This document shows, piece after piece, positions 1 through 39,636 of a stretch of 39,837 bases of DNA. The notes beneath the pieces were generated by a model, which was not told the origin of the DNA, made no database searches, and saw only the letters and a program-made list of their open reading frames with translations. Origin of the DNA: a virus; UHGV virus genome UHGV-0025829; one strand, given 5' to 3'. Each line of letters begins with the position of its first letter. The stretch's first letter is position 1. Made by a program: the position numbers and the translations under genes.

Positions 1-74
1 ATGAAGTGAACGGTATTTCCCGCGTGGTGTATGACATCAGCGGCAAGCCGCCAGCTACCATTGAGTGGGAATGA
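1..74 (+). CDS. guaA: Host gene 3-prime end (partial CDS), probably GMP synthase C-terminus
   Basis: Frame 3 reads ...EVNGISRVVYDISGKPPATIEWE then TGA at 72..74. I recall this as the GuaA C-terminus; recalled, not verified. Confidence 0.45.
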   Translation, partial: EVNGISRVVYDISGKPPATIEWE

Positions 75-76
75 TT
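60..76. repeat. attL core candidate (ATTGAGTGGGAATGATT)
   Basis: Identical 17-mer recurs at 39565..39581; covers the last codons and stop of the host CDS; integrase gene lies 190 bp to the right. Confidence 0.6.
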
Positions 77-121
77 AACAGCTAACTCATAGCAACTCAT
101 TCCTATTCAGATACTAATTTA

Positions 122-153
122 ACCCTCTGTTTTTACAGAGGGTTTTTGTTTTT
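122..153 (+). terminator. Rho-independent terminator, phage-side copy resembling the host terminator at 39609..39636
   Basis: 9-bp stem ACCCTCTGT/ACAGAGGGT, loop TTTT, then T-tract. Confidence 0.6.
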
Positions 154-209
154 ATGTATTCATTTCTATTCACTCTACACCATATTTTTCGGCGGTACAG
201 GTGACGGTA

Positions 210-224
210 TTACCTTAAAGGTAT
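210..224. promoter_or_regulatory. Operator-type palindrome TTACCTTAAAGGTAT upstream of integrase
   Basis: Matches the recurring TTACCT-N3-AGGTAA motif with one mismatch; about 45 bp upstream of the int start. Confidence 0.45.
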
Positions 225-266
225 ACTCTCATACCGTCATGAAAATGGTTTTTATACGGGTGAATT

Positions 267-1523
267 GTGCTTACCGATACAAAATTAAAAAACCTCAAGC
301 CACAGGACAAACTGTACAAAGTTTCCGATCGTGACGGGCTGTATGTAGCTGTGCTTACGTCAGGTACGGTCTCGTTTCGCTATGACTACCGTATCAACGG
401 TCGCCGCGAAACACTGGTAATCGGGCAGTATGGGCGTGACGGTATCAGCCTGGCAGAAGCGCGAGAAGAACTGATTGCTGCAAAGAAGCTGCTTAAAGCA
501 GGCCAGTCGCCGGCTGCGGCTAAACGTGACGGTATCAAAAAGATTCGTGGTGCCGAGACGTTTGCGGTACATACCGACAGTTATATGAAACACGTCATCC
601 TGGCTGAAAGTACCCGCGCAATGAAGCAGGCGGTGATCGACCGTGACATACTTCCGGTTCTTGGCAACAAAATGATGGCTGAAATTACCACATCGATGGT
701 TCGTGATTTGTGTGACCGGATTGTCGAACGCGGTGGTCGGGCAACAGCAGTACAGGCCAGGGAGATCATCAGCAGCGTATACCGTCACGCCAATGACCGT
801 GGTCATGGTTTGTTTAATCCTGCTGCTGACATTAAACCTTCGTCTATCGCCATATTTAAACCACGAGAGCGAACACTGACACCAGAAGAAATTGGTCTGT
901 TCTTCCGCACGCTGGATGCCATTGGTGCTATGGGCACTATGAAAATGGCTTTAAAGCTGGTGCTTATCACTATGGTTCGTAAAGGCGAATTCACCAATGC
1001 AACGTGGGATGAAATAGATTTTAAAAAATGGACATGGACAATTCCTTCAGACCGCATGAAGGGAAGCCGGGCGCATGTTATTTACCTGCCTAAACAGGCT
1101 CAGGATATATTGGTCGGGTTGCAGATGTGCGCTGGTGGAAGTGAATATCTGGTTCCTGGTCGTTACAATTTCAGGAAGCCATTATCTAATGCCGCGCTGA
1201 ACTCTCTGATCGACAGAACGGTGAAAATAATAAATGAAGATGGTGAGCATATTCAGGACTTCACCGTACACGATATGCGCCGTACAGCCAGTACGTTGTT
1301 GCATGAGGCTGGTTATCCTTCAGACTGGATTGAAAAGGCTCTGGCACATGAGCAGAAAGGTGTGCGCGCCGTATATAACAAAGCGGAATACGCCAGACAG
1401 CGCGCCTACATGTTGCAGCAGTGGTCCGATATGATTGATTCCTGGATTAACGGGGAGCATACGGATCTGATTCCGTTCTCCCCGTCGAAGTTTGAGAGGT
1501 GGATGGAAGGCAGTAATAAATAA
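267..1523 (+). CDS. int: Tyrosine recombinase / phage integrase (P4-like, with N-terminal arm-binding domain)
   Basis: GTG start; N-terminus LTDTKLKNLKPQDKLYKVSDRDGLYVAV is typical of P4-family integrases; C-terminal catalytic region with HDMRRT and Y-containing tail. Confidence 0.85.
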   Translation: MLTDTKLKNLKPQDKLYKVSDRDGLYVAVLTSGTVSFRYDYRINGRRETLVIGQYGRDGISLAEAREELIAAKKLLKAGQSPAAAKRDGIKKIRGAETFAVHTDSYMKHVILAESTRAMKQAVIDRDILPVLGNKMMAEITTSMVRDLCDRIVERGGRATAVQAREIISSVYRHANDRGHGLFNPAADIKPSSIAIFKPRERTLTPEEIGLFFRTLDAIGAMGTMKMALKLVLITMVRKGEFTNATWDEIDFKKWTWTIPSDRMKGSRAHVIYLPKQAQDILVGLQMCAGGSEYLVPGRYNFRKPLSNAALNSLIDRTVKIINEDGEHIQDFTVHDMRRTASTLLHEAGYPSDWIEKALAHEQKGVRAVYNKAEYARQRAYMLQQWSDMIDSWINGEHTDLIPFSPSKFERWMEGSNK

Positions 1524-1525
1524 TT

Positions 1526-2185
1526 CTATCCTTCCTGGACTTTGGTAAGCGTCAGATTTCCGCAGAACACTGCGCCGGTGTCGATGTACATCTGGTTTGC
1601 ATACACCAGTGGGTGATGTGCTGGCGTATGACCGAAGATGAACAAATCGGCACCGGTTATCTCCGAGACAATACCGTCCTGCGCGTCGCTAACCCGCTCA
1701 CGATTCCATATCACCATTTCTTCCGGTACTGGCTTATCGAATGCGTATTCGTTGTGCGGGTAGTCTGCGTGGCAGATGACGACCTTCTTATTGCCGGTAA
1801 CCAGTTCGATAATCATCGGGAGGTTGGTAATCTTTGGCAGAAGGTATTTGAGTTGCACATCCTGCTCAGAATCAAGTTGGTGCCACCATCCACCGCCGTT
1901 TGACATCCAATGTCCGAAACTTCCGCCGTTGACCAGTGCATCCAGCATCATCTGCTCATGGTTGCCACGAACAGCTCGGAACCACGGCATAGTAATCAAA
2001 TCCAGGCATTCGACGTTTTCAGCGCCGCGGTCAACAAGGTCACCAACGGAAATAAGCAAATCGCGCGCCGGGTCGAATGAAACTTTGTCGAGTTCGTTCA
2101 TCAGCAGCGTGTAGCACCCATGCAGATCGCCGACGACGAAGATATTGCACCAGTCATCGCCATTGATGCGTTGATATAGGTTCAT
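1526..2185 (-). CDS. Ser/Thr protein phosphatase (lambda PPase / NinI-like, metallophosphoesterase)
   Basis: Motifs [15 protein letters not shown] and RGNHE; start ATG (MNLYQRING) overlaps the upstream stop as ATGA. Confidence 0.8.
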
Positions 2186-2832
2186 GCTACACGCTCCCGC
2201 CCCTGGTTGTCTGTTGGTGACAGCGGAGCATTGCTGAATGCATTTGTTAATCTGGCAATATCCAACGCGTATCCAGGGTGTAGTTGCACTGCTGGGTCTT
2301 CGCACTGATTACCCCAAACATCGAAGCCATGAGACGACTGGCGGGCGAACAGTTCAATGCGAGAAACATCGCCTAACAATTGCACAAGTTTTTCACGAAC
2401 GACATCTGGTTTTCTTGAATGCTCAAGCCGCGGTGCGGTAAATGACTGAACGATACCTGCATTAATGCGCGGAGGTAGTTTTCCCTTTACTGCAAACAGG
2501 CAATCTTCACTATTGGCGCGAGTCATGTGACCCATACCCATAACCAGTTTATCTGGTTGTCGACTACCACATTTTATCCACGTGAATCCCTTCATGGTCA
2601 TCAGACGGAATCCCCAGGCTTCAACAACTTTTAGTGCTTCGAGTGGTTGTGTTGGCACCCACCACATGGCCAACAGACAGTTTTCATCGGCCAAATCCCA
2701 CACAGGAAGGCGGCAGATATCCAGCACACTCATAACCGGATATTTAAAACCGGCACCGCGATTACCATCTGCGGCTTTGTCCCGGTATACCCAGGGTGGA
2801 TCTGCATAGATTAGTGTGTATTTCTTAGTCAT
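2182..2832 (-). CDS. DNA N6-adenine methyltransferase, MT-A70 family
   Basis: LIYADPPW motif near the N-terminus; GGGGTGG Shine-Dalgarno before ATG at 2832. Confidence 0.75.
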
Positions 2833-3091
2833 AAACCACCCCACAACATCCTATGCCGCTATAGTCGCCACGGCGAAGGCCGTTACCTTTTGTGATACAT
2901 TGGTCCCTGCGAACCGCGATCCTTGCACGCTCAACATCACCAGAAGCAACATCCATACACTGAAGCCAAAGGTTGGCGGCAATGCGGAACTGCCCTTTTT
3001 TCTCTCTTTCAATCGCGCGTTTTTCGATCTCTATCGCCGCAGGAGAAACGGCAACAACCTTTGAAGGGCTGCGCATTGAAACCTTGTTCAT
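2825..3091 (-). CDS. Hypothetical small protein
   Basis: ORF overlapping the MTase start by 8 nt; start uncertain (ATG at 3091 or 3076). Confidence 0.35.
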   Translation of the reverse strand: MNKVSMRSPSKVVAVSPAAIEIEKRAIEREKKGQFRIAANLWLQCMDVASGDVERARIAVRRDQCITKGNGLRRGDYSGIGCCGVVYD

Positions 3092-3233
3092 GTGATATTT
3101 TTCAAGTCTGCTTAACTTTCTCACTTAATCCAACCCTCTCTGAAAATTAATGCCAGCAGATAAAGCCATGCTGAAACAGAGGCCAAGAATAAGTACCATC
3201 ATGACCATTTGCTCCAGTGCCTTAGCAGCGCAC

Positions 3234-3482
3234 TCATGCAGCGTTGCTCACAGGACGATAGACACGTTGCTGAACAGGAGGTTTTTTACCCTGGAACTCT
3301 GCCGGGCTTGCTGCCTGACGTTCATCAAGCCAACGCTCAACTTCATCACGGTTCCATGCGCAGCGTTTATCGGTGATATACCAGCGTTTAGGAAATTCCC
3401 CTGCGCGCTCCATACGGTCGATAGTGCTCCATGACAGTGGAACCACCGCCAGGAGTTCCTTCTTACCTAATGCACCTTTCAT
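3234..3482 (-). CDS. AlpA-family HTH regulator / excisionase-like protein
   Basis: Short protein with LSWSTIDRMERAGEFPKRWYI...WNRDEVERWL pattern typical of AlpA/Xis; good SD (GAGAGGT). Confidence 0.7.
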   Translation of the reverse strand: MKGALGKKELLAVVPLSWSTIDRMERAGEFPKRWYITDKRCAWNRDEVERWLDERQAASPAEFQGKKPPVQQRVYRPVSNAA

Positions 3483-3531
3483 AAATACCTCTCTTGGTTG
3501 CAGTGCGGCGCGCGTGGCGCCGCGGTGGTGG

Positions 3532-4473
3532 TTACATAGATGTTTCGTTTAATTCTTCCCGACGAACGCTGTAAACGTCGGTGGCTTTTGCCAGCAGTTC
3601 GTCATCATCTGAAAGTTTTTGTGCAATGTATTTGTAAGCCTTATCCAGTTCGGAGACAGTGCTGTAATTCATCGCTGCGCTGGTAAAGGCCATCAGCATT
3701 TCTTCTGGATCACGGCTATCCGATTTACGCGTTTGCTCATCAGGCTTTTTCGCTGGTTTAGCGTTGATCAGACTGTTCATTCCCGCAGCAGTGGTCGTTT
3801 GCGGAGTAATGTCTCGCTCAACGCGCGGTGCCGTTTCCTGTAATTCGTCTGGGGTGTAGACGCCCATGATTACGTCAGGACAGTGCAGGCGAGACCAGCG
3901 TTTTGTCGCAAGGTATGCGAGTTGTTGTTTCGGATCACTGGCCCAAAGTGTGGAGTTTCTTACCTGTGCTTGAGACAGCATTAACTCAAGCACTCGAGGT
4001 TGATCCTCGCCCTTCATGGTTGCCCATACGCGAACACCGCAGCCTTCTTCGTCTTTTAGAGTCCAGCCTGGTGCGATATATGGATTGCCGTTTTTGGATG
4101 TTTTCTCAACAAACTTACCGATCACGCGTTCCCACGGCCCAAACCACTCGTAGTTGATGCGATCTTTTGTTGGCGACATCGTTGAGATAACTGCGTTTAC
4201 TAATTGGGCTTCATAACCTAGCGTGCCGTTCACAACATGGGTTTTCTGAGCCACGGCAAACGGGTTCATTCCCCACTGCGCAGCCTGCATTGCCACGGCC
4301 ATGCAATCAGCTGGTTTCCCGGCGAGGTGCGCCGGTACCGTTACGCGGCTTTGCGCCATTACCTCGGCGAATTTCATCAGTTGGTTCAAGCCGTCTGGGC
4401 TGAAAATAGTTGCAGCAGTTCCAGCGATTGCTGTGTCTACTGGTGCGTTGATGTTTGCGATGTCGTTGCTCAT
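3532..4473 (-). CDS. recT: RecT-family single-strand annealing recombinase
   Basis: RecT-like central region (AQWGMNPFAVAQKTHVVNG...); ATGA overlap with the upstream nuclease gene. Confidence 0.75.
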   Translation of the reverse strand: MSNDIANINAPVDTAIAGTAATIFSPDGLNQLMKFAEVMAQSRVTVPAHLAGKPADCMAVAMQAAQWGMNPFAVAQKTHVVNGTLGYEAQLVNAVISTMSPTKDRINYEWFGPWERVIGKFVEKTSKNGNPYIAPGWTLKDEEGCGVRVWATMKGEDQPRVLELMLSQAQVRNSTLWASDPKQQLAYLATKRWSRLHCPDVIMGVYTPDELQETAPRVERDITPQTTTAAGMNSLINAKPAKKPDEQTRKSDSRDPEEMLMAFTSAAMNYSTVSELDKAYKYIAQKLSDDDELLAKATDVYSVRREELNETSM

Positions 4474-5291
4474 ATGTACATATCCTGTTTGCGTGCCCAC
4501 TCAGGGCGTTTAATGATTTCCACACCGCCCCATTCATCATTGATGCGGCATTCGTGATAGGTATTCAGATCCCGGCGGAACAGAGCGTGCCCGGCATCGA
4601 CATCCTGCGCATCCAGCTCGAACACGCGTACCGGATACCGACCACAATCAATGCTTTCGCTCACGGCAAGAAAGAAAAAACCATGCGGCTGACCAGTAAC
4701 CCTCATTGCGCCTTCGCGGTACATTGCGTCCTGCACGTGGTAGCGGAATTCCTCGATGTGGCGTGCAAAACGGTCCATATCTGCAACCTTTTTCACGTCG
4801 ACGATCACGTTGTGCTCGTTCAGCCATTTGTCTGGACGAATTCGGCACAACTCACCCGTCTCTTCATCGTTCCAGTACATTGATGCTTCGCAGTAACCAG
4901 GTGCTTCCAACATCCAGCGTGCCGCCGGGTGAGCCATTGCGCTATCACGCATCAGCTCCAGTTTCCGCCACTGCTCGGCATCAAGTACCGTAATCCCCAT
5001 ATCCGCCACATCACGAAGAAATGCCTCTTCGTCAGCTTTACCTTGTTTCGTCCGACGATCGAATTTCGGTGAAACAATGAAGCGTTTGTCGAACTCTCTA
5101 GGCTCCAGAAGCAGACAGTGCAATGCGGTTCCCATATCCAGTGCAGACTTTTTCTCTTCGTCTTCTGGTGCTGCCTGAACCCATTTAAGAAGCGCCGGAT
5201 TCTTGGCAACCATGTCCAGTTGCGACTTACTCACGCCGTCACCGGCGTGGTAGTCCTCATTGCTGATGTCGAAATAGATGCCAGTATTCAT
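4470..5291 (-). CDS. RecE-like PD-(D/E)xK exonuclease
   Basis: Immediately upstream of and translationally coupled to recT; RPD...VDVKK nuclease motif; N-terminus resembles the RecE C-terminal nuclease domain (recalled). Confidence 0.6.
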   Translation of the reverse strand: MNTGIYFDISNEDYHAGDGVSKSQLDMVAKNPALLKWVQAAPEDEEKKSALDMGTALHCLLLEPREFDKRFIVSPKFDRRTKQGKADEEAFLRDVADMGITVLDAEQWRKLELMRDSAMAHPAARWMLEAPGYCEASMYWNDEETGELCRIRPDKWLNEHNVIVDVKKVADMDRFARHIEEFRYHVQDAMYREGAMRVTGQPHGFFFLAVSESIDCGRYPVRVFELDAQDVDAGHALFRRDLNTYHECRINDEWGGVEIIKRPEWARKQDMYI

Positions 5292-5494
5292 AACTTAACC
5301 TTGTATTCGTTCTGCTTGTTGGAACGGGTTCCATCGTGGAAATATATTGCGCTCCTGGTTACCTCTACCCATTTGCGACGTTCAAGCTCAGCGATGAACC
5401 AAGAAACCTTCGATCTTGAGATACCAAGAATCTTTGCCATATCTCGGATGCTGTGTTTTCCACCTCGCAGCAATGAGAGGAGTGTTGGTTTCAT
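5288..5494 (-). CDS. Small winged-HTH DNA-binding protein
   Basis: 68 aa, DMAKILGISRSKVSWFIAELERRKWV HTH-like segment; ATGA coupling on both sides. Confidence 0.5.
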   Translation of the reverse strand: MKPTLLSLLRGGKHSIRDMAKILGISRSKVSWFIAELERRKWVEVTRSAIYFHDGTRSNKQNEYKVKL

Positions 5495-5790
5495 GCCGCG
5501 TCCCTCTGCCCATCAAGCTGATCAGCCAGATCCCAGCGGGCGATAATTGCCATTGCCTCGCGCCGGTAGGCATCCATTAGTTCTTCGAACTCAGGGCTGT
5601 CTTTAGCGGCCTCCAGTACTTCCTGGCGAACGCCTTTAACTGTTACAACGTCGAAAGTTGATGCCAGTTGATGAAGCCGGATACTCTCAATCAGTTCGAC
5701 TTGTCGGTCATATAGCTGTTCTGACAGGCGGTAGTCCTTGTCGAATTCCAGCATGATTTTTTGAAGATTTTTCTGCTGATTAACGTTCAT
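5491..5790 (-). CDS. Hypothetical early protein
   Basis: 99 aa from ATG 5790 with GGGAGGG SD; coupled to the downstream gene. Confidence 0.5.
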   Translation of the reverse strand: MNVNQQKNLQKIMLEFDKDYRLSEQLYDRQVELIESIRLHQLASTFDVVTVKGVRQEVLEAAKDSPEFEELMDAYRREAMAIIARWDLADQLDGQRDAA

Positions 5791-5807
5791 TATCAGCCCT
5801 CCCATAT

Positions 5808-5945
5808 CTAGTTATCGTTGGCCACATCGCGAGCTTCTTTGCTGACGAAAGCCCACTTAATGCCTTCCTGTAAGGTGCGGAACTTCCAGCTCATGAATCC
5901 GCATGCAGTAACGCAGTACCAACCGTTGATGATTTTCCACTGCAT
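5808..5945 (-). CDS. Small Cys/Trp-rich hypothetical protein (45 aa), first gene of leftward early operon
   Basis: ATG with GAGGT SD; stop overlaps the SD of the next gene; below the 60-aa cutoff of the ORF track. Confidence 0.35.
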   Translation of the reverse strand: MQWKIINGWYCVTACGFMSWKFRTLQEGIKWAFVSKEARDVANDN

Positions 5946-6026
5946 AACTTGTTACCTCGGTCTGTTACCGTTGAGGTAATGATTATGCGTATTTGGTTTG
6001 GTGTCAATAGATATGAGTTAAAAAAA

Positions 6027-6041
6027 TTACCCTTAAGGTAA
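6027..6041. promoter_or_regulatory. Operator palindrome TTACCCTTAAGGTAA (left operator candidate)
   Basis: Perfect TTACC/GGTAA inverted repeat in the leader of the leftward early operon. Confidence 0.6.
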
Positions 6042-6051
6042 TTGTGCAGGC

Positions 6052-6077
6052 AATAAAAAAGCCGCCAGAAGGCGGCT
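6052..6077 (-). terminator. Rho-independent terminator after repressor gene
   Basis: Hairpin AGCCGCC-AGAA-GGCGGCT followed by T-run on the minus strand. Confidence 0.65.
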
Positions 6078-6098
6078 TACTTACTGAAAAATATGATT

Positions 6099-6683: not shown

Positions 6684-6738
6684 TTTCTGGAAAATCGCCT
6701 CATATATGAATCAGTAGATGATTCAATTTAAAGCAATA

Positions 6739-6801: not shown

Positions 6802-6837
6802 ATATTTATTATCTGAAATAAATATCAGGCAATAGCT

Positions 6838-7068: not shown

Positions 7069-7089
7069 TATCCAGCCACAACCCTCTGT

Positions 7090-7434: not shown

Positions 7435-8250
7435 ATGAGCAGACATGCAACAGATTGGGCTTGGGAGACAGATCCAGGCAGCTCATCATTAAAGCTCATA
7501 CTGCTCTCGATGGCTGACAGAGCCGATGAATATAACCTCTGCTACCCCAGCATAGAACGCCTCGTTAAAGACACTTGCCTGAATAAAAAAACCGTGCAGG
7601 CCGGGCTTATATCGCTCATGAAAATGGGGCTTATTTCAGATACCGGAGAGAGAAAGGGAGCGACAAAAAGAGTGCGGGTTTTCTCTCTTAATATAACCAA
7701 AAACGGGAACATTAAAGGCAACCGAGAGGGGGTCAATGAACCCGAAAACGGTAATGTTACCGAAAACGGGAATATACCCAAAAACGGGATGTTGAATGAT
7801 CCCAAAAACGGGATGTTGAATGATCCCAAAAACGGGATCCAGAACCAGTCATATAACCAGTCATTTAACCAAGAGAGGGAGAGCAGGACAAAAAACGGGG
7901 ATTCTGTGCATCATGACCCCGGCGCAAACAACGCCGTGATGAATAACTTTGTTCCTCTTGGTGGGCCAGGGCAATTAGGCAAATTTGTCATGCATGAACA
8001 ATGGCAGCCATCAGATGACTTTCTTCGGAAAAGCTCATTGCAGGGGATCTACCTGGACAGTCTGCCAACGGCACAGGAACTTGCAGAGTTCAGAATTTAC
8101 TGGATGGCTGAGGGTAAGGCATACCATCAGGCACAGTGGGAGCAGAAGCTGGCAAGGCGGCTGCAGATTAGCAGACAGAAGCAATCAACATTACCTGATA
8201 ACAACGTTCCGCACTGGAACAGCCCTGAAGCATGGGAGGATTTCTTGTGA
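7435..8250 (+). CDS. Replication initiator (O-like) with N-terminal winged-helix domain and iteron-bearing linker
   Basis: N-terminus LKLILLSMADRADEYNLCYPSIERLVKDTCLNKKTVQAGLISLMKMGLI resembles phage replication-protein HTH domains; tandem repeats inside the gene. Confidence 0.6.
   Translation: MSRHATDWAWETDPGSSSLKLILLSMADRADEYNLCYPSIERLVKDTCLNKKTVQAGLISLMKMGLISDTGERKGATKRVRVFSLNITKNGNIKGNREGVNEPENGNVTENGNIPKNGMLNDPKNGMLNDPKNGIQNQSYNQSFNQERESRTKNGDSVHHDPGANNAVMNNFVPLGGPGQLGKFVMHEQWQPSDDFLRKSSLQGIYLDSLPTAQELAEFRIYWMAEGKAYHQAQWEQKLARRLQISRQKQSTLPDNNVPHWNSPEAWEDFL
7696..7839 (+). repeat. Iteron array (about six copies of CCRAAAACGGKA at 18 to 24 bp spacing); candidate origin of replication
   Basis: Copies at 7696, 7741, 7759, 7777, 7801 and 7825; two 24-bp units are identical; encodes the PKNGMLND repeats. 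Confidence 0.6.
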
Positions 8251-24572: not shown

Positions 24573-27380
24573 ATGCCAGTTGTACCAACAACATCGGGCC
24601 GTCAGGTTCAGAGCAGAGGGATTTCGACGCAGGGATTCTCATCGTTTCAGACACCAAATGTCGGTGATGTACTTGGCGATGTTGCAGAGCAATATGCAGG
24701 TATTATTGCGCAGGCAAAACAGCGTGCGAATGTTGCTATGGCTCAGGATGCTTCTCTTAGCTTAAGCCAGATAAGCAGCGATCTGCTGAATAACCCTGAA
24801 ACAGGTTTGCTTAACCTGAAAGGGAAAAATGCTATTGGAAAAGGTCAGGAGTATACGCAGCAGTTTGATGCTCAGATCGAACAACTGGCTATGTCGCTGC
24901 CGGATGAACAGGCTCGTAATGCTTTCATGCAGCAGGCGCAGCAGCAGCGTATTCAGTTCACTACGCAGGCCGGGCGGCACGAGATAGGGCAAATAAATGC
25001 CTACGAAGAAGGCCAGTTTCAGGCGACGCTGCTGAACAATGGTAAAAATGCCGCAGCATTGTATGGCGACAATGCCGCATACGTATTGGCTAATAAGCAA
25101 ACTTTCCAGCAAATTGAGGATTACGGCATTGCACATGGCTGGAGCGACGAGCAAATACAGGCCAAGAAAATCGAGTTTAAAGAGAAGGTTGCTGATGCCG
25201 CATTGTCCCAGTGGTCGGCAAACAATGCGACCGCATTCATCCAAAGTAATGGCGAGTTAAGTGATACTGCTGCTGGATCAAAGCGGGCTATTGTTAATCC
25301 TTATGGTGGAGAGCCAAAGTCCACAAAGGGAATGGTTGTTCAAGGAAATATTAATCTCTTCAACCGCCCATCTGTCAAAAATGAAGATGGGACTATCAGT
25401 ACCGTTCGAACAATTTCTATAGGCACGGAAGCTGGAGAAGTTCTCATTCCCACCGTCAGTGATGATGGAAAATTGCTTTCCGATGACGAAGCTATTGCTC
25501 TGTATGAAAAAACTGGAAAACACCTTGGAATATTCGATAACCCTGAGAATGCGACCGCCTATGCTGAGAAACTTCACGAACAGCAGGATCAGTATTACGT
25601 AAAAGGTGGTGCTCGCGGTATCCGTAATAACAACCCAGGAAATCTCGAATACAGCAAAACTAATCCGTGGGTAGGCCAGACCGGTGATGATGGTCGATTT
25701 GCTAAATTCGAAACACCTGAACACGGGATTCGTGCATTAGGGCGGAACCTGATGTCGTATCAGAGGCAGGGTATTGATACCGTCAGCGAGATAATTAATC
25801 GCTGGGCACCGCCTACTGATAAAAATGACACTATGTCGTATATCAAAGCAGTGTGCGAACAACTTGGCGTTTCTGCTGATGAGCCTCTCGATGCATCTAA
25901 TCCTGATACCCTGAAGGCGCTTTGTGCAGCCATTATCCATCATGAGAACGGTGGCCAGCCATACAGTGATCAGCAGTTAACTGCTGGTGTCAGTGCAGCA
26001 CTTGGTTTATCAACAATTCCAACCAACACCAAACGCTATACCGGTAATGCAGCATTCGATGCGGCATCTCCTGAGGCGCAGGCAAGTTTTATGCGACAGG
26101 CGGATCAACTGCGTCGGCAGCAGCAGGCTGAATATAAAACGATGATTGACAGCCAGGTTCGCGATGCGACAGCTGCGTATATGCGTGGCGTTGAATTTCC
26201 TAACCCACCTGGTGAGGCTGATTTTATTGCAGCTTATGGAGTCAGAGAAGGAAACCTGCGATATACCGAGTTCAGAAATACGCAAATCGCCGGACAGTAT
26301 ATAGGCTCTTTCCGCAACATGCCGACAAGCAGCATTACAGCATATGTTGAGCGATTACGCCCGGATACTGGTGAGACAGGGGAGGGTTATGCGGCACGAG
26401 CCGCTCTTTATGACAACGTTGTGTCGGCTGCAAGTCAGGTGATAAAGCAGCGACAGGCTGATCCTGTACAGTTCTCTCTTGCCGCCGGACAGGCAAAGCC
26501 TATCGACATGAGCAATAAGGATAACTTTGGACAGAGCGTTGCCTTGCGTGCTGCTCAGGTCAGTGACCTTGCTAAGTCATATGGCACTCCACTGACGTTC
26601 TTTTCCAAAGACGAGGCCAATCAGATCGGTGTTTTCTTTCGTGATGCGCCCGTTTCCCAACAGGCAGCATATCTCGATACCATCAGGCAGAGCACTGGTG
26701 GTGGGCAGGTGTATATGTCAGCACTACAGCAGATCAGTGCCAACGCTCCATCTGCTGCCGTTGCCGGGATACTGATGGATAAGCCAGGTGGTATTTTGGC
26801 AGAAAAAAACTGGTTTAATCCGGATGTTTCCGTGTCTCCTGAAACCGCTGCGCAGACAATTCTTGCTGGCGCGGCGGCTCGTAAAGGTACTGATGACGCG
26901 AAAGGTATTCCGATGCCTAAAGATGCTGATCTTCGCTTTGAGTTTTCTGACATGGTGAAGGATGCATTTGCTGGTGATGCTCAGGGGGCATCAATGGCGT
27001 ACGAGATCGCAAAGGACTATTACGCTGGTGTGATGGCGAAAAAAGGCGTGGTATCAGGCGAAATTGACAATGATATCTGGAAACAGGCTGTTAACGTAGC
27101 TACAGGTGGCGTGCATGACTATAACGGAATGGGGAATGTTCTTTTGCCGTGGGGAATGTCTGCAGAGCAATTCGATAAGCAGGTTAATCAGGCTTGGAAT
27201 GAACAAGTTGTTGGCACAGGGATAAAAACACCGCCTGGTCAGTATGGTTTGCAAAGTTACGGCGATAGTCAGTACCTGGTGAAACTTGGTACTGGTTATC
27301 TGCTAAAAGATGATGGTTCTCCCGTTGTTCTTGATCTGACACAGAAGCGTCAGAGATTCTCCGGAGATATTCCGCAATGA
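24573..27380 (+). CDS. Large internal virion (ejection) protein with an AT-rich inserted domain
   Basis: 935 aa; compositionally distinct segment around 25260..25750. Confidence 0.55.
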
Positions 27381-32817: not shown

Positions 32818-32837
32818 GGAAAACTCCTGATGTGCTT

Positions 32838-33005: not shown

Positions 33006-33017
33006 ATCGCGCCTCCT

Positions 33018-33032
33018 TTACCTTTAAGGTAA
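33018..33032. promoter_or_regulatory. Operator palindrome TTACCTTTAAGGTAA
   Basis: Perfect motif copy abutting the SD of the 33005 gene. Confidence 0.55.
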
Positions 33033-33098
33033 TATTACGCGAATCTACATCACATCGCCAATGATTATTTTAAAGGCACATCCCTGTGCCGCCGCCCA

Positions 33099-33810
33099 TC
33101 AGAAGAACCCAGCTTTGTCGTTGATGTACTCCGCGTGCGTCTGGATATCACGCAGGCATTTACTCACACCAACGATGTAGCAGAACATGGTGGTCAGTTC
33201 CGCCGCCGCGCCCGATACATCATGCCCGTCGTCCTGCAACTGATTCAGCAGATTCATCAGCAATGAGTTCTCCGTCAGGCCGAGAACACCAGACGGTGAA
33301 TGAATCAGACTGCGGTAGCCTGGCTTCAGTGGGGCACTGTAGGTTTTGTTCTCTATCTTCATTGCCTGTATTACTGCTGACGCCGTGGCGTTGGCTACCT
33401 GGTCGGCAACCATCTTTATGCGTTCTTCCTGCGGGAGCGAGTTTTTAATGTAACTTCCGGTGCGGCGGATCTGAGGAAGAACCTCACCTGTAACCCATTT
33501 ACGAAAGCGGTAGGGGATAGTGCCTGGTGTCACCGCATCGCGGCAGCGGAGGATCAGTGTGTAGAGGCCTGACTCGGAGATGATGTTGATCTCTTTTACT
33601 CGGCTGTCAAAAATTGCACGATGTTCATGCCCTATGTTGAACATAGACCTTTCATCATCATCCAGTTTTTCAAGTGATTGGGTGACGTTTTGGATACGCA
33701 GCGCACTACAAACGTCTTGGGCTACAAACCATGGTTGGCCATCGATAATGATGGAACGGATAGGGTTAACAGATTCAAATTTGAAGATGGCAGTTTGAGC
33801 ATTAGCCATG
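33099..33810 (-). CDS. Antirepressor (Bro-N / Ant-like N-terminal domain plus C-terminal domain)
   Basis: FKFESVNPIRSIIIDGQPWFVAQDVCSALRIQNVTQSLEKLDDDE matches the Bro-N fold pattern; ATG at 33810 with GGAGAT SD; C-terminus paralogous to the 34125..34382 product. Confidence 0.7.
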
Positions 33811-33827
33811 GTGGTTATCTCCACTTA

Positions 33828-33841
33828 GTGATTTTAATCAC
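33828..33841. promoter_or_regulatory. 14-bp perfect palindrome GTGATTTTAATCAC at the antirepressor promoter/RBS
   Basis: Lies 18 bp upstream of the ant ATG, next to the SD. Confidence 0.5.
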
Positions 33842-33963
33842 CACCGCAACGCCAATTACTGGTGGTGAACTGGACAAGGTTGGCGTACCGGCCTAAGTGG
33901 TACCGGCGTCCTTTCGGACCCCTGCCCAGCCCACCATAATTCGGATATGGCTGTGCTTAACGC

Positions 33964-33988
33964 ATAAAAAAACCACGTCTGGCGTGGT
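33964..33988 (-). terminator. Rho-independent terminator inside the ant upstream region
   Basis: ACCACG-TCTGG-CGTGGT hairpin with T-run on the minus strand. Confidence 0.5.
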
Positions 33989-34078
33989 ATGCGCCACTTA
34001 GTAACTCGGGACGCCAATCCCGGCACTGGATTTTGCCAGTACCCGATTACTATGGCACAAGAGGAGTGCGATGTAAAT

Positions 34079-34093
34079 TTACCTCAAAGGTAA
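34079..34093. promoter_or_regulatory. Operator palindrome TTACCTCAAAGGTAA
   Basis: Perfect motif copy 32 bp downstream of the small antirepressor-paralog gene. Confidence 0.55.
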
Positions 34094-34124
34094 ATATAAG
34101 CACTCCATTTGGTAATTGCAAACC

Positions 34125-34382
34125 TTATCTGGTTTGTTTTCGTAATTGTTCGGCACAATAGTCGAGATGTGTTTGCAGATCCTGCATAGACATCTGTGAG
34201 CTGGTGACGTAGTTAATCAATGCAGTCAGTTCGGCAAGTGGGCCATCGACATTAAATCCATCCTTATCGAGATCCCGGAGTAATTTCATCAAGTGCGATC
34301 CCTCCACCAGTGACCTGACGCCTCCCGGCGTGTGAATCCTTTCGGTAAATCCGTCTTCCAGTGGATAGTGATACTGCTGCAT
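34125..34382 (-). CDS. Small antirepressor-domain protein (paralog of the Ant C-terminal domain), LexA-regulated candidate
   Basis: 85 aa from ATG 34382 with GGAGAA SD; aligns with the Ant C-terminus (HxPxGV...AELT...DxQTH); LexA box just upstream. Confidence 0.6.
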   Translation of the reverse strand: MQQYHYPLEDGFTERIHTPGGVRSLVEGSHLMKLLRDLDKDGFNVDGPLAELTALINYVTSSQMSMQDLQTHLDYCAEQLRKQTR

Positions 34383-34401
34383 CTTATCTTCTCCATGCAA
34401 T

Positions 34402-34421
34402 AACTGTATATTTATACAGTA
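34402..34421. promoter_or_regulatory. LexA (SOS) box AACTGTATATTTATACAGTA
   Basis: CTGT-N8-ACAG with AT-rich centre, close to the E. coli consensus TACTGTATATATATACAGTA. Confidence 0.7.
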
Positions 34422-34458
34422 GCAAATAATTTGTTTGCTATCCAGCACGTTTTGCAAA

Positions 34459-34473
34459 TCACCTGAAAGGTAA
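34459..34473. promoter_or_regulatory. Operator-type palindrome TCACCTGAAAGGTAA
   Basis: One mismatch in the left half; between the LexA box and the tailspike start. Confidence 0.45.
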
Positions 34474-34577
34474 TATCTGTTCGTATTTATGGGTTATCTA
34501 TCCATATGTGGTTTTTCAGGTAATAGAATAACCGGATATGCGGCGCAACGGGTGCTGCGACTATCTGGAGATTTAAC

Positions 34578-37280
34578 ATGACGGTCTCAACCGAAGTTGA
34601 CCACAACGAATACACAGGTAACGGCGTTACGACATCATTTCCTTATACCTTTAGGGTTTTCAATAAATCTGATCTGGTAGTGCAGGTGATTGACCCTGAC
34701 GAGAATATCACTGTGCTGGCTCTTGATACTGATTACACGGTGACGGGGGCTGGAGGATATACTGGCGGGAATGTTGTGCTGATGTCCCCGCTGGCCAACG
34801 GATGGCAGATTTCTATCTCGCGTGACCTTCCAGTTACCCAGGAGACTGACCTACGCAACCAGGGGAAGTTCTTCGCAGAAGTGCATGAAGATGCGTTCGA
34901 CAAGCTGACCATGCTGATCCAGCAGTGCTTCAGCTTTCTCCGACTGGCGCTGCGCAAGCCGTCGTTCATCGCTAACTATTACGACGCGCTCAACAACCGC
35001 ATTCGTAACCTGCGTGACCCGTCACAGGAACAGGATGCGGCCACAAAGAATTATGTTGATGGTCAGATTGTTGACAACACCAATGCATGGAAAGCCGCGG
35101 ACGTCGTTCTTGATAATAAAATTGACAGCAATTTTCGGCGCACTCTTAGGGTTCCTGAGAGCAATATCCAAGTATTGCCTACCATAGATGCAAGAAAGAA
35201 GAAATTATTCGCCTGGGATGATTCAGGAAATCCAATTTCTGTACTTCCTGAATCAGGATCTGCGTCTGATGTTCTTATTGAGTTAGCTTCCAGTTATGGT
35301 TTTAGCCTTATCGGGCAGGCTACGTATTCGCAGATCCGTAATTTCACAGGATCAGGTAACTCAATAATGTGCTGCGGTTGCGAAACACTTCTGGATGGTG
35401 GTCAGGGCATGTTCGATCAGGTTCCTGGTGGGGCAGTTATGACCACTCCAGACGATGGCTGTGTATTTATTCGCGATACTATTGGGCGGTTATGGAAACG
35501 CCGTTATGAGGGAAATGAGATCCTGATGGCATGGGCCGGGGCTAAAAGCCTGAAACAAACTTCGGAACCGCAGGACCCGGCCTTTAGAAAGTGCCTTCAG
35601 GCCGCTGCCTCTTTGTCTGAGTCAGGCTATCCGCAATCTATTATCCGGGGGCTGGACAACGCCACCACATACCTTGCTGAAAAGCACCATATCCGCTGCG
35701 GTAACTTCCCGGAGTACATGGCGTGGAAACTTCCACCTGACGGCGGCGGCCGGCGTTTCGGTATTAAAGGGACGTGGGCTCAGGGGTTAGGTGCCGGTTG
35801 GTTTGTCGTACAGGCTAACCATCCGCTGTTCGATTTCACAATCGATAATACCGGCATTGATTTCAATCTGGATGCGTATACCGATGAAGAAATCAAAGTC
35901 CTCGTCGAAGACAACTATATTTTACGTCTGGAGGCGATGGTAAATGCCCCGGAATTTAATGTTCATGCAGGCAACCACCCGGGGACTGTACTTTACAGCC
36001 TCGGTAAATCTGATTATTCAGCGGTAACCGCACAGTGGCCTGATTTGACTACAGTGCTTCCGTCTATCCAGAACGTGGGCAAAGCGGCGTTTAATATTAA
36101 GCACTGCGGCAGGGATTTCCTGCTGAAGAACTGCGGTGCGGGTATGGGGCATTTCCACTCCGTCTGGACACAGGATAACTCTCAGCCGGGATATATTTAT
36201 TCCTGTTACGACCTGACGTTGACCTATGAGGACTACGTCCCCCATACAGAAGAACGCGGGGGGCTTATTTTCGAAGCGTGCGGGACCCTGTCTCTTGAAA
36301 ATATCCTGACCGGTGCGGGAGGCGTCGGGCATTTATGCATCTGGGACTGTCGAAATGTGACCATCAACAAGCACGTCTCGATATGCGGCGCACCTACCTA
36401 CGCGCAGTCGAACCCGAATCTGTATGCCGTGGAAATCTGTAACTCTGAGCTGGCTGTCTATGGTGTGCATGCCCAGGGCTCTGGCAAGTTTATGCGTATC
36501 GGCTTTAACTCACGCGTGACGTTCTACCACACGACGGCGTGGGACATTGCGCAGATGATTCTGGGTACCAATGACCTGAGTCTACTGAAGTATCGTGGTC
36601 AGCGAGCTGCGGTCCTTAACGACCCTATTAAAGTATTCCTTGAATCTGGATTTGTTCAGTCTGCGAATACTGCAGATAAGGGCTGGCCTTGCCAGCCGCT
36701 GATCGTGTTTGATGAAACAATCGGTGGTGATTTCCAGCTGTTGTTCAACCTCGAGGCAAATAATAACCACTCAGGATACGATACCCAGCCTGAGGCGTTA
36801 CTTGCGCTGATAGATATTCGATCTACCAGTCCTAATGGCGAGGTTGTCTTGGGTGAGCAGTCAAAACTGGAAGGTAATACGACAAACTACGTTGTGCGGC
36901 TGGCGAATAAAAACCAGCTCAAGGACGTATTTACTCGCAAAACTAACTTTGTTCGCATCCGGTATACGGATGATAACTCACAGTCTTCCTTTGCTTTGAG
37001 GCATGCTAATCACCCACTTCAAGGTACGGTTGTTGGACGTAACGCGTCCTACTCATATCCATATAAGCGTCCTGGCTTGTACAGCGTCAAAATCACTATT
37101 CCATCCGGTGGTGGATCTTTTTCTGTAACGCATAACGGATTCACGATTTATGAACAGGACCAGCCTGGAATTCATCGTGTACTTATTGATCTGAGATTCC
37201 AGGAAACCGTGCAGATCACTATTAACGGTGGCGAAAACGTCACTATGACAAACGCCGAATGGCGATATTATGTGGGGTAG
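34578..37280 (+). CDS. Tailspike / tail fiber with T7 gp17-like N-terminal adaptor domain and beta-helix-type receptor-binding body
   Basis: 900 aa; N-terminus YTGNGVTTSFPYTFRVFNKSDLVV resembles podovirus tail-fiber N-termini; GGAG SD. Confidence 0.75.
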   Translation: MTVSTEVDHNEYTGNGVTTSFPYTFRVFNKSDLVVQVIDPDENITVLALDTDYTVTGAGGYTGGNVVLMSPLANGWQISISRDLPVTQETDLRNQGKFFAEVHEDAFDKLTMLIQQCFSFLRLALRKPSFIANYYDALNNRIRNLRDPSQEQDAATKNYVDGQIVDNTNAWKAADVVLDNKIDSNFRRTLRVPESNIQVLPTIDARKKKLFAWDDSGNPISVLPESGSASDVLIELASSYGFSLIGQATYSQIRNFTGSGNSIMCCGCETLLDGGQGMFDQVPGGAVMTTPDDGCVFIRDTIGRLWKRRYEGNEILMAWAGAKSLKQTSEPQDPAFRKCLQAAASLSESGYPQSIIRGLDNATTYLAEKHHIRCGNFPEYMAWKLPPDGGGRRFGIKGTWAQGLGAGWFVVQANHPLFDFTIDNTGIDFNLDAYTDEEIKVLVEDNYILRLEAMVNAPEFNVHAGNHPGTVLYSLGKSDYSAVTAQWPDLTTVLPSIQNVGKAAFNIKHCGRDFLLKNCGAGMGHFHSVWTQDNSQPGYIYSCYDLTLTYEDYVPHTEERGGLIFEACGTLSLENILTGAGGVGHLCIWDCRNVTINKHVSICGAPTYAQSNPNLYAVEICNSELAVYGVHAQGSGKFMRIGFNSRVTFYHTTAWDIAQMILGTNDLSLLKYRGQRAAVLNDPIKVFLESGFVQSANTADKGWPCQPLIVFDETIGGDFQLLFNLEANNNHSGYDTQPEALLALIDIRSTSPNGEVVLGEQSKLEGNTTNYVVRLANKNQLKDVFTRKTNFVRIRYTDDNSQSSFALRHANHPLQGTVVGRNASYSYPYKRPGLYSVKITIPSGGGSFSVTHNGFTIYEQDQPGIHRVLIDLRFQETVQITINGGENVTMTNAEWRYYVG

Positions 37281-37283
37281 AAA

Positions 37284-37547
37284 ATGTCATTGAAAGGTCG
37301 TTTTTTTATCGAAACTTCTGGTGGGACTTTTGTCTATACCAAGGCTGAAATTTTTAATCAGGGGGGAATGCCTGAAAACATCAACCTGAGCGTTTTGTTT
37401 TCCGAACCTGAGAGCGATCAAGCCCACCCAACCGCAATGCGAAATTACACATTTACTCCAGATATGAACTCAGCGGAAAACCTCTGGGTTCAGGGTTATT
37501 CTTATCTGAAAACGCAAACAGATTTTACAGGGGCTGAGGAAATTTAA
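37284..37547 (+). CDS. Hypothetical protein downstream of the tailspike
   Basis: 87 aa starting 4 bp after the tailspike stop. Confidence 0.45.
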   Translation: MSLKGRFFIETSGGTFVYTKAEIFNQGGMPENINLSVLFSEPESDQAHPTAMRNYTFTPDMNSAENLWVQGYSYLKTQTDFTGAEEI

Positions 37548-37674
37548 TGGGATTCCCTGAAGGTCTTGGATAATGCTAAGTATCACTATTACCATTTATT
37601 CATATACGGTTAATTGTGTATGATGAACTTACCCAACTAAGGAGGTTCATCATGCATAGTAAACGGTGGTCATC

Positions 37675-38079
37675 ATGTCTGCATCGCTAACCGCTGATAC
37701 GATAAATCATGGGCTTAGCTACGGTGCGCTGGCGGCAGTCATCGCCGGCGTACCTCCTGAAGTGGCGCTGGGGTCGCTGGCCGGGGCGGTAATTTTTGTT
37801 ACCTCTGCTGTTGAGTATCCGGTCAAGCGTCGCGTTCTCCTGGCGCTACTCAGTTTTCTCTGCGGTCTTCTCTTCTACAAACCCACAGCATCAATCCTTA
37901 TCGGCGTTGCCAGCATGATCCCCACCATCACACAGGACTCGCTCGAGCGGGGAATTGTCTACTCCGCCGGCGCGTTCGTTGCGGCGATTGTCGCTGTGCG
38001 GGTTGGGATATGGCTGTATCACCGCTCTGACAATCCGCGCGATTTAATCCCGGGAGGAAAAGACGATGACAGGCCATGA
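37675..38079 (+). CDS. Holin candidate (multi-TM membrane protein)
   Basis: Three to four hydrophobic segments and a charged C-terminus; first gene of the lysis cassette; GTG 37666 and ATG 37675 are both possible starts. Confidence 0.55.
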   Translation: MSASLTADTINHGLSYGALAAVIAGVPPEVALGSLAGAVIFVTSAVEYPVKRRVLLALLSFLCGLLFYKPTASILIGVASMIPTITQDSLERGIVYSAGAFVAAIVAVRVGIWLYHRSDNPRDLIPGGKDDDRP

Positions 38080-38371
38080 TCTGCTGCTTATCGCTAACGC
38101 AATCATCTGCGGCGGGATAGCGCTGCGGGTGATGTTCTTCCAGCGCAACGGATCGCGCCACCGCCGCTGGGGCGGGTGGATCGCCTATTTCCTCATCGTG
38201 GCTGCGGCCAGTATCCCGCTGCATACCGCGTACTCATACCTGTACCACTTCCCCATGACCGCAGATCTTTCTGAGGTCGTTATCAATGCTGTGATGTTCG
38301 CCGCGGTGCTGAAGACACGCGGCAACGTCGTGCAAATCTTCAAGATATCGAGGTCGCAACATGGACATTAA
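38066..38371 (+). CDS. Second holin / antiholin-like membrane protein
   Basis: 101 aa with three hydrophobic segments; GGGAGG SD. Confidence 0.5.
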   Translation: MTGHDLLLIANAIICGGIALRVMFFQRNGSRHRRWGGWIAYFLIVAAASIPLHTAYSYLYHFPMTADLSEVVINAVMFAAVLKTRGNVVQIFKISRSQHGH

Positions 38372-38990
38372 CGAGTTTCAGAAAGCTGCCGGCGTTAACT
38401 TGTCGCTGGCCACGCGCTGGCATCCGCACATTGTGGCGGCCATGAAAGAGTTTGGCATCATCAAGCCGCTGGATCAGGCGATGTTTATTGCCCAGGCCGG
38501 GCATGAAAGCACTGGCTTTACCCAGCTCGTTGAGAGCTTCAATTACAGCGTGGCGGGGCTGGCTGGTTTCGTCCGTGCCGGGCGACTGACGCAGGGCCAG
38601 GCTAATTCCCTCGGGCGCCGGCAGGGTGAACCATCGTTGCCACTGGAGAGGCAGCGGGCCATTGCCAATCTGGTGTACAGCAAACGCATGGGGAATAACG
38701 GGCCGACAGATGGCTGGTTTTACCGCGGGCGCGGGCTTATCCAGATCACCGGGCTGAACACCTATCGCGACTGCGGCAACGGCTTGAAGGTGGATCTGGT
38801 TAAGCAGCCGGAGCTGCTGGCGCAGGACGAGTATGCAGCGCGGAGCGCGGCGTGGTACTTCGTGAAATATGGATGCCTGAAGTACACCGACGACCTGATG
38901 CGCGTCACGCAGATCATCAACGGCGGGCAGAATGGCATCGACGATCGCCGTGTGCGTTACCTGTCGGCCAAGAAGGTGCTGGCATCATGA
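38361..38990 (+). CDS. Endolysin, glycoside hydrolase family 19 (chitinase-like lysozyme)
   Basis: Motifs FIAQAGHESTGF and YRGRGLIQITG are characteristic of GH19 phage lysins. Confidence 0.8.
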   Translation: MDINEFQKAAGVNLSLATRWHPHIVAAMKEFGIIKPLDQAMFIAQAGHESTGFTQLVESFNYSVAGLAGFVRAGRLTQGQANSLGRRQGEPSLPLERQRAIANLVYSKRMGNNGPTDGWFYRGRGLIQITGLNTYRDCGNGLKVDLVKQPELLAQDEYAARSAAWYFVKYGCLKYTDDLMRVTQIINGGQNGIDDRRVRYLSAKKVLAS

Positions 38991-39487
38991 TCACGGCATT
39001 CGTGAAAGCATACTGGAAACAGTTGCTTATCGTGTCGATGCTTGCTGCTCTGGTGGCCAGCGGCGTTGTCGCCTGGAATATTCACGGTGACAGGCAGTAC
39101 GACGCCGGCTATGCGCAGGCGAAGGCAGACCGCAAAGCAGAAGATGATAAAGCCCGTCAACATGACGAACAGGAGAAAGCAACCAATGAACGAGAAGCGC
39201 AGCAGAAGATCGACCAGGCGCGCAATGATGCTCTTGATGCTGCCGCTCGCGCTGGCCGGCTGCAGCAGCAGCTCGTTGCCATCCGTGAGCAGCTCAGGCA
39301 GTATAACGCCACTGTCGGCGCTGGGACGTCAGCCGCAGACACCGGAGTTTTGCTTGCCGACGTGCTCGAAAAATCTCTCGAACGAAACCGGCAATTGGCA
39401 GAATACGCTGACCGGGCAGCTGAATCCGGAAGAGTCTGTGAACGGCAATATGACGAACTGACGAAGCGGGGCACAATTTCCCGGTGA
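38987..39487 (+). CDS. Rz-like i-spanin
   Basis: ATGA overlap with the endolysin stop; N-terminal TM helix then Gln/Ala-rich coiled coil. Confidence 0.7.
   Translation: MITAFVKAYWKQLLIVSMLAALVASGVVAWNIHGDRQYDAGYAQAKADRKAEDDKARQHDEQEKATNEREAQQKIDQARNDALDAAARAGRLQQQLVAIREQLRQYNATVGAGTSAADTGVLLADVLEKSLERNRQLAEYADRAAESGRVCERQYDELTKRGTISR
39186..39461 (+). CDS. Rz1-like o-spanin lipoprotein embedded in the +1 frame of Rz
   Basis: Arg-rich n-region, hydrophobic core, lipobox LAGC, Ser/Pro-rich mature part; lies wholly inside Rz. Confidence 0.6.
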   Translation: MNEKRSRRSTRRAMMLLMLPLALAGCSSSSLPSVSSSGSITPLSALGRQPQTPEFCLPTCSKNLSNETGNWQNTLTGQLNPEESVNGNMTN

Positions 39488-39564
39488 CGGTATATAAAAC
39501 GGTATCTTGGATTTTGTTTTTAAAAATGTTGTTTTCAGTCAATTGGTTACGATACCTGTAAATA

Positions 39565-39581
39565 ATTGAGTGGGAATGATT
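39565..39581. repeat. attR core candidate (ATTGAGTGGGAATGATT)
   Basis: Exact 17-bp direct repeat of 60..76. Confidence 0.6.
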
Positions 39582-39608
39582 TTGATCCCTGCACTATGAA
39601 TGAACAAA

Positions 39609-39636
39609 ACCCTCTGTTACTACAGAGGGTTTTTTA
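39609..39636. terminator. Host rho-independent terminator between convergent host genes
   Basis: Stem ACCCTCTGT/ACAGAGGGT, loop TACT, then TTTTTT; A-run on the other side. Confidence 0.65.

Follow-up and report, generated by a model that had tools for sequence, protein, structure and literature searches.

Phage 21 and e14 at icd, and the phages and islands found in tRNA genes, bring with them a substitute 3′ end for the gene they enter (Campbell's rule). Phage lambda offers a second model, in which the sib/tI hairpin and terminator adjoins attP downstream of int and takes part in state-dependent control of int. For guaA, integration of vB_EcoP_ZX5, a phage classified as a Uetakevirus, at the 3′ end of the gene was demonstrated by junction polymerase chain reaction and Sanger sequencing, with core attgagtgggaatgatt; the same paper gives an identical 17-bp core for phiV10 and epsilon15 (PMC9782041). 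GIsul2 likewise targets the 3′ end of guaA, with core GAGTGGGA (GIsul2 paper). Here we analyze virus genome UHGV-0025829, a 39,837-nt stretch of DNA (hereafter the window, meaning the whole stretch), in which a prophage related to epsilon15 and phiV10 lies at the end of guaA with a terminator-like hairpin that is a near-copy of the one belonging to the host.

We think it likely that this Uetakevirus prophage was inserted by a P4-type integrase at the guaA 3′ end, with the crossover in ATTGAGTGGGA, and that it supplied a stop codon, a 3′ untranslated region (UTR) of ~46 nt and a terminator hairpin that shares the host stem and would end guaA transcription. Four observations carry this reading: the anatomy of the junctions, the phage's ownership of its hairpin, the conservation of that hairpin and a strand-specific constraint on its pairing. 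The shared stem is most likely due to shared descent.

The phage, the site and the insertion system are known and ordinary, and the phage terminator is known as well. ZX5, phiV10 and epsilon15 have the same 17-bp core, guaA 3′-end target, integrase and P′ arm, hairpin included; the att–int region is 98–99% identical in DNA to E. coli Uetakevirus members, with no essential difference. Neither the ZX5 paper (PMC9782041) nor the GIsul2 paper speaks of a terminator or of any resemblance to that of host guaA, and nowhere in the accessible literature did we find the phage hairpin described as a near-copy of the host one. What we add is modest: the stem shared with the E. coli and Klebsiella guaA terminator, the limiting of the crossover to 11 bp, the terminator as a family-wide trait of guaA-targeting attP arms, and hints that such arms persist as the host's 3′ end. 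As in the icd and tRNA insertions, the site lies within the 3′ end of a conserved gene that stays functional. Unlike in those cases, only four codons and the stop are duplicated, identically in E. coli, and the conspicuous duplicate is a non-coding terminator with an unrelated spacer between core and hairpin. The locus resembles lambda sib/tI in having an attP-adjacent RNA hairpin whose link to neighboring transcription units shifts on integration; it differs in that the hairpin lies upstream of int and is swapped for an equivalent host terminator, and no state-dependent difference is expected.

The pattern AACCCTCTGT-NNNN-ACAGAGGGTT occurs exactly twice in the window, at 121–144 and 39608–39631, when shuffled sequences predict no occurrence. 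Positions 121–147 and 39608–39634 are identical at 25 of 27 nt, and only the loop differs, TTTT in the phage copy and TACT in the host copy. The initial annotation had described a look-alike terminator at 122–153 and 39609–39636, with an identical 9-bp stem and the loop as the sole difference. The look-alike is real, the loop difference was borne out, and the coordinates fall within 1–3 nt of ours; the identical stem measures 10 bp. The phage hairpin has a 10-bp stem and the tail TTTGTTTTTA, and the host hairpin a 12-bp stem with the tail TTATCTTCAA following four stem U's. Both were scored as terminator-like on the + strand, the phage copy on that strand only, with folding energies of −15.9 (phage) and −17.8 kcal/mol (host) and z-scores near −5.8. 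In the GenBank records of epsilon15 (26795–26824) and phiV10 (26781–26813) the hairpin is annotated as a rho-independent terminator. A search of both junctions against Rfam at permissive E-values returned sub-threshold chance matches only, with no known small RNA or cis element. The host hairpin has T runs on both strands (TTTT on the − strand too) and lies 40 nt past the stop of the convergent gene yfgI (39674–39676); it may be a bidirectional terminator for guaA and yfgI. The phage hairpin lacks an upstream A run and looks unidirectional.

The junctions themselves are simple. The 17-mer ATTGAGTGGGAATGATT occurs in exactly two copies in the window, both on the + strand (mean of 0.01 matches in shuffles), and these direct repeats bracket a prophage of 39,488 bp (77–39564). 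The core reads ATT GAG TGG GAA TGA, that is I-E-W-E-stop, and the translation of 3–74 ends in GKPPATIEWE*. The claim that the repeat covers the last four codons and the stop of a host gene, probably guaA, agrees with both this translation and the annotation of E. coli genomes. We also ran the empty-site check that had been suggested: positions 1–76 joined to 39582–39837 match many E. coli chromosomes at 100% over all 332 nt, with a single core copy followed by the host hairpin and then yfgI, and the finding withstood this check. The contiguous guaA–yfgI junction is present in ~4461 of 5426 complete E. coli genomes, and an attL junction with the window's integrase in 569 of them (~10%); the first 400 nt of the window are identical to enterotoxigenic E. 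coli H10407, among others. The core is identical at attL, attR, attP and attB, and both the empty site and the free attP exist.

In free phage ZX5, the lysis-side arm leads into the core, which is followed by a spacer and hairpin identical to window positions 77–153. Because this free phage carries it, the hairpin at 121–147 is a property of the phage and that at 39608–39634 a property of the host. Klebsiella junctions locate the crossover more closely. There, the native guaA terminus is ATTGAGTGGGAGTAA, the attR reads ...GTAAATAATTGAGTGGGAGTAATCCCC and the attL of the same prophage reads ATTGAGTGGGAATGATTAACGG, so that identity between attP and attB is limited to the 11 bp ATTGAGTGGGA and strand exchange must fall inside it. 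This limit agrees with the GIsul2 core given above. Since the crossover lies within ATTGAGTGGGA, the guaA stop codon, 3′ UTR and terminator of a lysogen are phage DNA; in the Klebsiella lysogen the phage-supplied stop TGA replaces TAA. The phage does therefore supply a replacement C-terminus, as first proposed, in the formal sense that stop, 3′ UTR and terminator are phage-derived. In E. coli the codons are identical to the host's: the six bases after ATTGAGTGGGA happen to match, and the protein is left unchanged. As for 3′-end reconstitution, the crossover falls inside the gene and phage sequence restores an intact frame, but the similarity of attP and attB is confined to the 11–17 bp core and the 27-nt hairpin, with no continuous homology 3′ of the crossover.

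To describe the host side, we scanned viral contigs for attR junctions, in which a phage arm is joined to the core, and added one Klebsiella prophage record. All E. coli attR arms read ...GAATGAACAAAACCCTCTGT-TACT-ACAGAGGGTTTTTT, and those of K. pneumoniae ...AAACGAAACCCTCTGT-GTTT-ACAGAGGGTTTTTTT; several further hosts contributed arms in which the stem is the same and the loop differs. The loops are fixed within E. coli, TACT in every host arm and TTTT in every phage arm. In the resident arms of E. coli and Klebsiella, 26–28 nt separate the hairpin from the guaA stop; in host-side attR arms without int remnants, the distance is 10–33 nt. By local alignment against 2000 shuffles, the native spacers of E. 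coli and Klebsiella are homologous (p ~0.005). Going by these arms, E. coli and Klebsiella both have the shared stem in their resident guaA terminator.

Conservation separates the hairpin from its surroundings. Among ten Uetakeviruses of Escherichia, Salmonella, Enterobacter and Klebsiella, the att–int DNA is only 75–81% identical between genera; the hairpin is near-invariant, and the spacer columns just upstream of it vary freely. Across 22 distinct phage and host versions, standard pairs were found in 220 of 220 cells, against 26–69% in slid controls, although the stem varies little and the pairing test therefore has limited power. All changes in the stem are U·G, G·U or UA-to-CG, one pair passing from UA to CG with a U·G intermediate. 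On the opposite strand these changes would be C·A mismatches, which indicates that the constraint acts on + strand RNA. This is the requirement expected of a terminator serving guaA and rightward phage transcription.

The arrangement suggests how the hairpin would act. guaA and int are co-directional, and in a lysogen the guaBA transcripts would end at the phage hairpin before int; the hairpin would give guaA a defined 3′ end and keep read-through out of the prophage. Once the phage is circular, it would end the rightward lysis/late transcript ~120 nt after the DUF2514 gene, again before int, and a terminator scan found no further terminator-like site between 39487 and the att core. Since the host and phage arms each carry an equivalent + strand terminator, recombination should change neither transcription unit: both would meet a terminator in either state, in a like-for-like swap. 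The initial annotation had suggested that the phage preserves proper termination of guaA. The comparative data (orientation, conservation, pairing and equivalent hairpins) fit that suggestion, with termination itself being what we infer from them. The hairpin also follows closely on the lysis cassette when the phage is circular, so that ending guaA transcripts may be neither its sole nor its main task.

A scan of genome contigs for guaA ends returned at least 120 loci from many phyla. Among the loci listed, the guaA end ATTGAGTGGGAATGA is identical in distant phyla (Pseudomonas, Clostridia, Bacteroidales, Planctomycetota and others), an invariance that may explain the use of one integrase family across many hosts. 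The window Int is 52–54% identical to integrases of GIsul2-like islands beside guaA in Citrobacter, Halopseudomonas and Pseudomonas, where the label "GIsul2-like" refers to position and integrase family only. A terminator-like hairpin lies between the guaA stop and int at 12 of the 13 listed loci with an adjacent int-like gene, and 11 of those 12 hairpins start 44–47 nt after the stop, the Uetakevirus hairpin starting at 46 nt. The attP arms of this integrase family thus have a hairpin at this distance as a conserved component. The stems differ among element families (CCCTCTGT, GCCCGCG, CCCATTG and GCCCATG), and the enterobacterial phage lineage bears the version matching the enterobacterial guaA terminator. 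GIsul2-like islands thus share with the window the guaA 3′-end target, a related integrase and a hairpin 44–47 nt after the stop; they differ in the stem, AAGCCCGCGTAAYTGCGGGCTT, and in carrying resistance or transfer cargo rather than a podovirus.

GIsul2-like insertions were seen, among the loci listed, in Pseudomonas, Citrobacter, Tatumella, Halopseudomonas, Candidimonas and a contig labeled Gordonia; in their arms the core is followed by GTCTGGCA-type repeats and then by the hairpin AAGCCCGCGTAAYTGCGGGCTT. Native-looking guaA flanks of Pseudomonas syringae (L090), Enterobacter (L081, L101) and Erwinia (L092) have GCCCGCG-type hairpins resembling the GIsul2-like one, for example GCCCGCGTAATAGCGGGC in P. 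syringae and GCCCGCGTAATTGCGGGC in a GIsul2-like element. This could be a second terminator look-alike, or merely the commonest type of terminator stem.

One arm proved not to be what its position suggested. Behind prophages identified on their lysis side by 99–100% identity to epsilon15 and SPN1S, we found an arm with a TTTT loop (ATTGAGTGGGAATAAGCCGATAACCC...AACCCTCTGTTTTT[A/G]CAGAGGGTTTTTATTTATGTGCAT), called here the Salmonella-type arm; its host assignment comes only from the phage arm next to it, which matches epsilon15 and SPN1S at 99–100% identity. It had no match by megablast to the phage collection. Downstream of it comes either a fragment of an IS3-type transposase or a truncated integrase with 75% identity to the window Int. 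In a metagenome scan, guaA was joined directly to this arm in ten contigs, of which three continued into full-length integrases (70–72% identical to the window Int), three into broken ones and four into none; in one such contig a native-looking hairpin lies 8.5 kb further downstream. We therefore rejected the Salmonella-type arm as a native host flank. It is the arm of another guaA-integrated element or a remnant of one and cannot be used as a native reference, and in hosts that have it guaA appears to function with an element-derived 3′ end.

This second element family (L204, L152, L163, L212 and L253–L261) has an Int 70–75% identical to that of the window, its own spacer AAGCCGATAACCC... and the same CCCTCTGT hairpin. 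Its members are often decayed, with a truncated int or an IS3 transposase fragment, and are found behind epsilon15/SPN1S-like prophages in a tandem arrangement. There are two sub-types, alike over the first ~105 nt past the stop and divergent beyond. In Citrobacter sp. NCU1 (L129, 1380–1470), guaA and the core are followed by a Uetakevirus-type spacer and a phage-type hairpin with no integrase, and unrelated AT-rich DNA begins right after the T tract. A deletion between the phage and host hairpins could have left this arrangement as its scar; it could also be a decayed element.

The Salmonella-type arm, joined to guaA with a full, a broken or no integrase, is the basis for a broader reading that we put forward tentatively, as somewhat short of an even bet. 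It holds that guaA-targeting integrases carry a portable 3′-end cassette (stop, ~45-nt 3′ UTR and terminator at a fixed offset), with the host stem copied in enterobacteria, and that the cassette is left behind as the host's working guaA 3′ end when the element decays. Mobile elements would then drive turnover of the 3′ UTR and terminator in a housekeeping gene, and some "host" terminators, such as that of the Salmonella-type arm, would be of element origin. Decayed elements leaving their terminator as the host's own would be modestly interesting if true.

Three other explanations of the hairpin deserve weighing. The one that survives best, although we judge it unlikely, is that the hairpin serves chiefly as a DNA-level part of attP (a site for binding or bending by Int, IHF or Xis, or a cruciform) and that its likeness to a terminator is secondary. 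Such a role would fit the fixed offset of 44–47 nt that, among the loci listed, Uetakeviruses have in common with the second element family and with GIsul2-like elements despite unrelated spacers, and the predicted IHF site in the epsilon15 record spans the start of the hairpin. Against this, all 8 variant cells in the 22 sequences pair only as + strand RNA, which a duplex DNA site would not need. The same stem stands at 26–28 nt in E. coli and Klebsiella and at 10–33 nt in other attR arms free of int remnants, where it has no phage function, and related elements have other stems (GCCCGCG, CCCATTG) at the same place, which fits a structural RNA signal better.

It is quite improbable that the two copies are kept identical by ongoing recombination or gene conversion. 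The 27-nt copies do flank the prophage in direct orientation in every lysogen, and Citrobacter sp. NCU1 could be a scar of hairpin-to-hairpin deletion. However, a recombinant query (guaA, phage spacer, hairpin and yfgI flank) had no full-identity match in 5426 complete E. coli genomes, the best matches being ordinary empty sites at 92.6%, and the E. coli loops remain distinct and fixed. A length of 27 bp is also at the lower limit for RecA-dependent exchange. With no recombinant in 5426 genomes, ongoing recombination between the hairpins in E. coli was rejected.

Chance or convergence, with any strong terminator sufficing, is the least credible account of the shared stem: terminators are indeed short and compositionally biased, and GCCCGC-type stems recur in many unrelated guaA flanks among the loci listed, but the 24-nt pattern is confined to two places in 39.8 kb where shuffles predict none, an identical 10-bp stem would arise by chance about once in 10^6, and Enterobacter, Pseudomonas, Erwinia and other guaA-targeting elements use different stems, so that function does not force CCCTCTGT.

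A phage-supplied terminator sharing the host stem by descent is thus the explanation that we favor, and several points weigh against it. The ~45-nt offset is fixed across elements with unrelated spacers and could mean a DNA-level role in attP. A sigma-70-like promoter for int was looked for and none was found. Termination efficiency, read-through into int and the effect on fitness are all things we infer from sequence. The Uetakevirus spacer (77–120) showed no detectable homology to the native E. coli or Klebsiella spacers (p ~1), and capture of a host flank by the phage is accordingly backed by the hairpin alone. Finally, given the element origin of the Salmonella-type arm, the hairpin may have been transferred from host to element or from element to host. 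Capture of the whole host flank was considered separately and is not supported, the comparison of the Uetakevirus spacer being as just given and that of the second element family's spacer marginal (0.05–0.09).

The phage spacer has a feature of its own. Positions 97–109 are an imperfect inverted copy of core positions 62–74 (AATCATTYCTAYTCAA), from which a 13-bp helix (z = −7.9) is predicted both for the guaA 3′ end of a lysogen and for the late RNA of the phage. Across nine distinct phage sequences 97% of cells pair, three positions being G·U in most phages and G-C in some. The helix is predicted by the folding model to sequester the last guaA codons and the stop. The epsilon15 record annotates an RNase III site near it.

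The remaining features of the window (Table 1) are those of a Uetakevirus. Over 79–87% of their length, the first 25 kb share 97% identity with vB_EcoP_PAS61, phiv142-3 and vB_EcoP_ZX5. The prophage is within the ~39–40 kb expected of the genus, and its int and lysis cassette flank the att cores on opposite sides, as in ZX5, epsilon15 and phiV10. By these comparisons, the prophage is an epsilon15/phiV10-like temperate podovirus of the genus Uetakevirus. Pfam matches in Int to Arm-DNA-bind_3 (4e-20), Phage_int_M and Phage_integrase (1.4e-19) identify it as a putative P4-type tyrosine integrase in which both the arm-binding N-terminal domain and the catalytic domain are present. The gene order holin–endolysin–DUF2514 is common to the GenBank records of ZX5, epsilon15 and phiV10. 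There are 11 matches to GTGACGGTAT in the window where 1.96 are expected, six of them (one with a mismatch) within ~800 nt of the att cores. Judged by distance from the core, the 10-bp integrase-binding sites of the epsilon15 record line up with the copies at 39484, 201, 436 and 526, and these repeats are probably arm-type binding sites of Int. Several copies fall within the int coding region.

Table 1. Coordinates of features in the 39,837-nt window.
Feature	Position	Strand	Remarks
Host guaA 3′ end	3–74	+	Last 23 codons and TGA stop (72–74); translation EVNGISRVVYDISGKPPATIEWE*; annotated as guaA in E. coli genomes
attL core	60–76	+	17-bp ATTGAGTGGGAATGATT; exact repeat with 39565–39581; crossover placed within 60–70 (ATTGAGTGGGA)
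Phage P′ spacer	77–120	+	Identical in free phage ZX5
Phage-borne hairpin, intrinsic-terminator-like	121–153	+	Stem-loop 121–144, interrupted T tract to 153
Putative Int arm-type repeats, P′ arm (within 201–240)	201–210; 231–240	+; −	GTGACGGTAT; ATGACGGTAT
Tyrosine integrase gene	267–1523	+	Same orientation as guaA; start agrees with annotated ZX5 integrase
Further exact arm-type repeat copies, putative	436–445; 526–535; 779–788; 39484–39493	+; +; −; +	
Lysis cassette, prophage right end	38066–39487	+	Reads toward att core
Holin	38066–38371	+	Pfam Phage_holin_3_7
Endolysin	38361–38990	+	Pfam Glyco_hydro_19
DUF2514 spanin-like open reading frame	ends 39487	+	Pfam DUF2514
attR core	39565–39581	+	Second 17-mer copy; exact repeat of attL core
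Native host spacer, guaA stop to terminator	39582–39605	+	Present in empty E. coli sites
Resident E. coli guaA hairpin, terminator-like	39606–39639	+	Stem-loop 39606–39633 and T tract; in empty sites
Host yfgI (DUF5384) 3′ end	39674–39837	−	Convergent with guaA; open frame ends ...SDSWFN*; annotated as yfgI in E. coli genomes

Directly after int lies a Metallophos (serine/threonine phosphatase-like) gene at 1526–2305 on the − strand. It is also present in PAS61 and BP9, and ZX5, phiV10 and epsilon15 have other small genes there, a pattern of variable cargo. In the replication gene region, a 271-amino-acid open reading frame (7435–8250) contains 4–5 copies of the 24-nt repeat GAATRWWCCCAAAAACGGGATGTT at 7689–7841, which resemble origin iterons within an initiator gene, as in lambda O.

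The locus is a textbook case of how a temperate phage can take up the end of an essential-pathway gene without harm. One phage hairpin would serve both as the 3′ end of guaA in the lysogen and as the end of the phage lysis/late transcript. The guaA 3′ end is a busy insertion hotspot, with this attL in ~10% of complete E. coli genomes and the same core used by other islands, and the hairpin downstream of it may therefore be phage- or island-derived. For annotation, this means that a hairpin after guaA is not necessarily the host's own.

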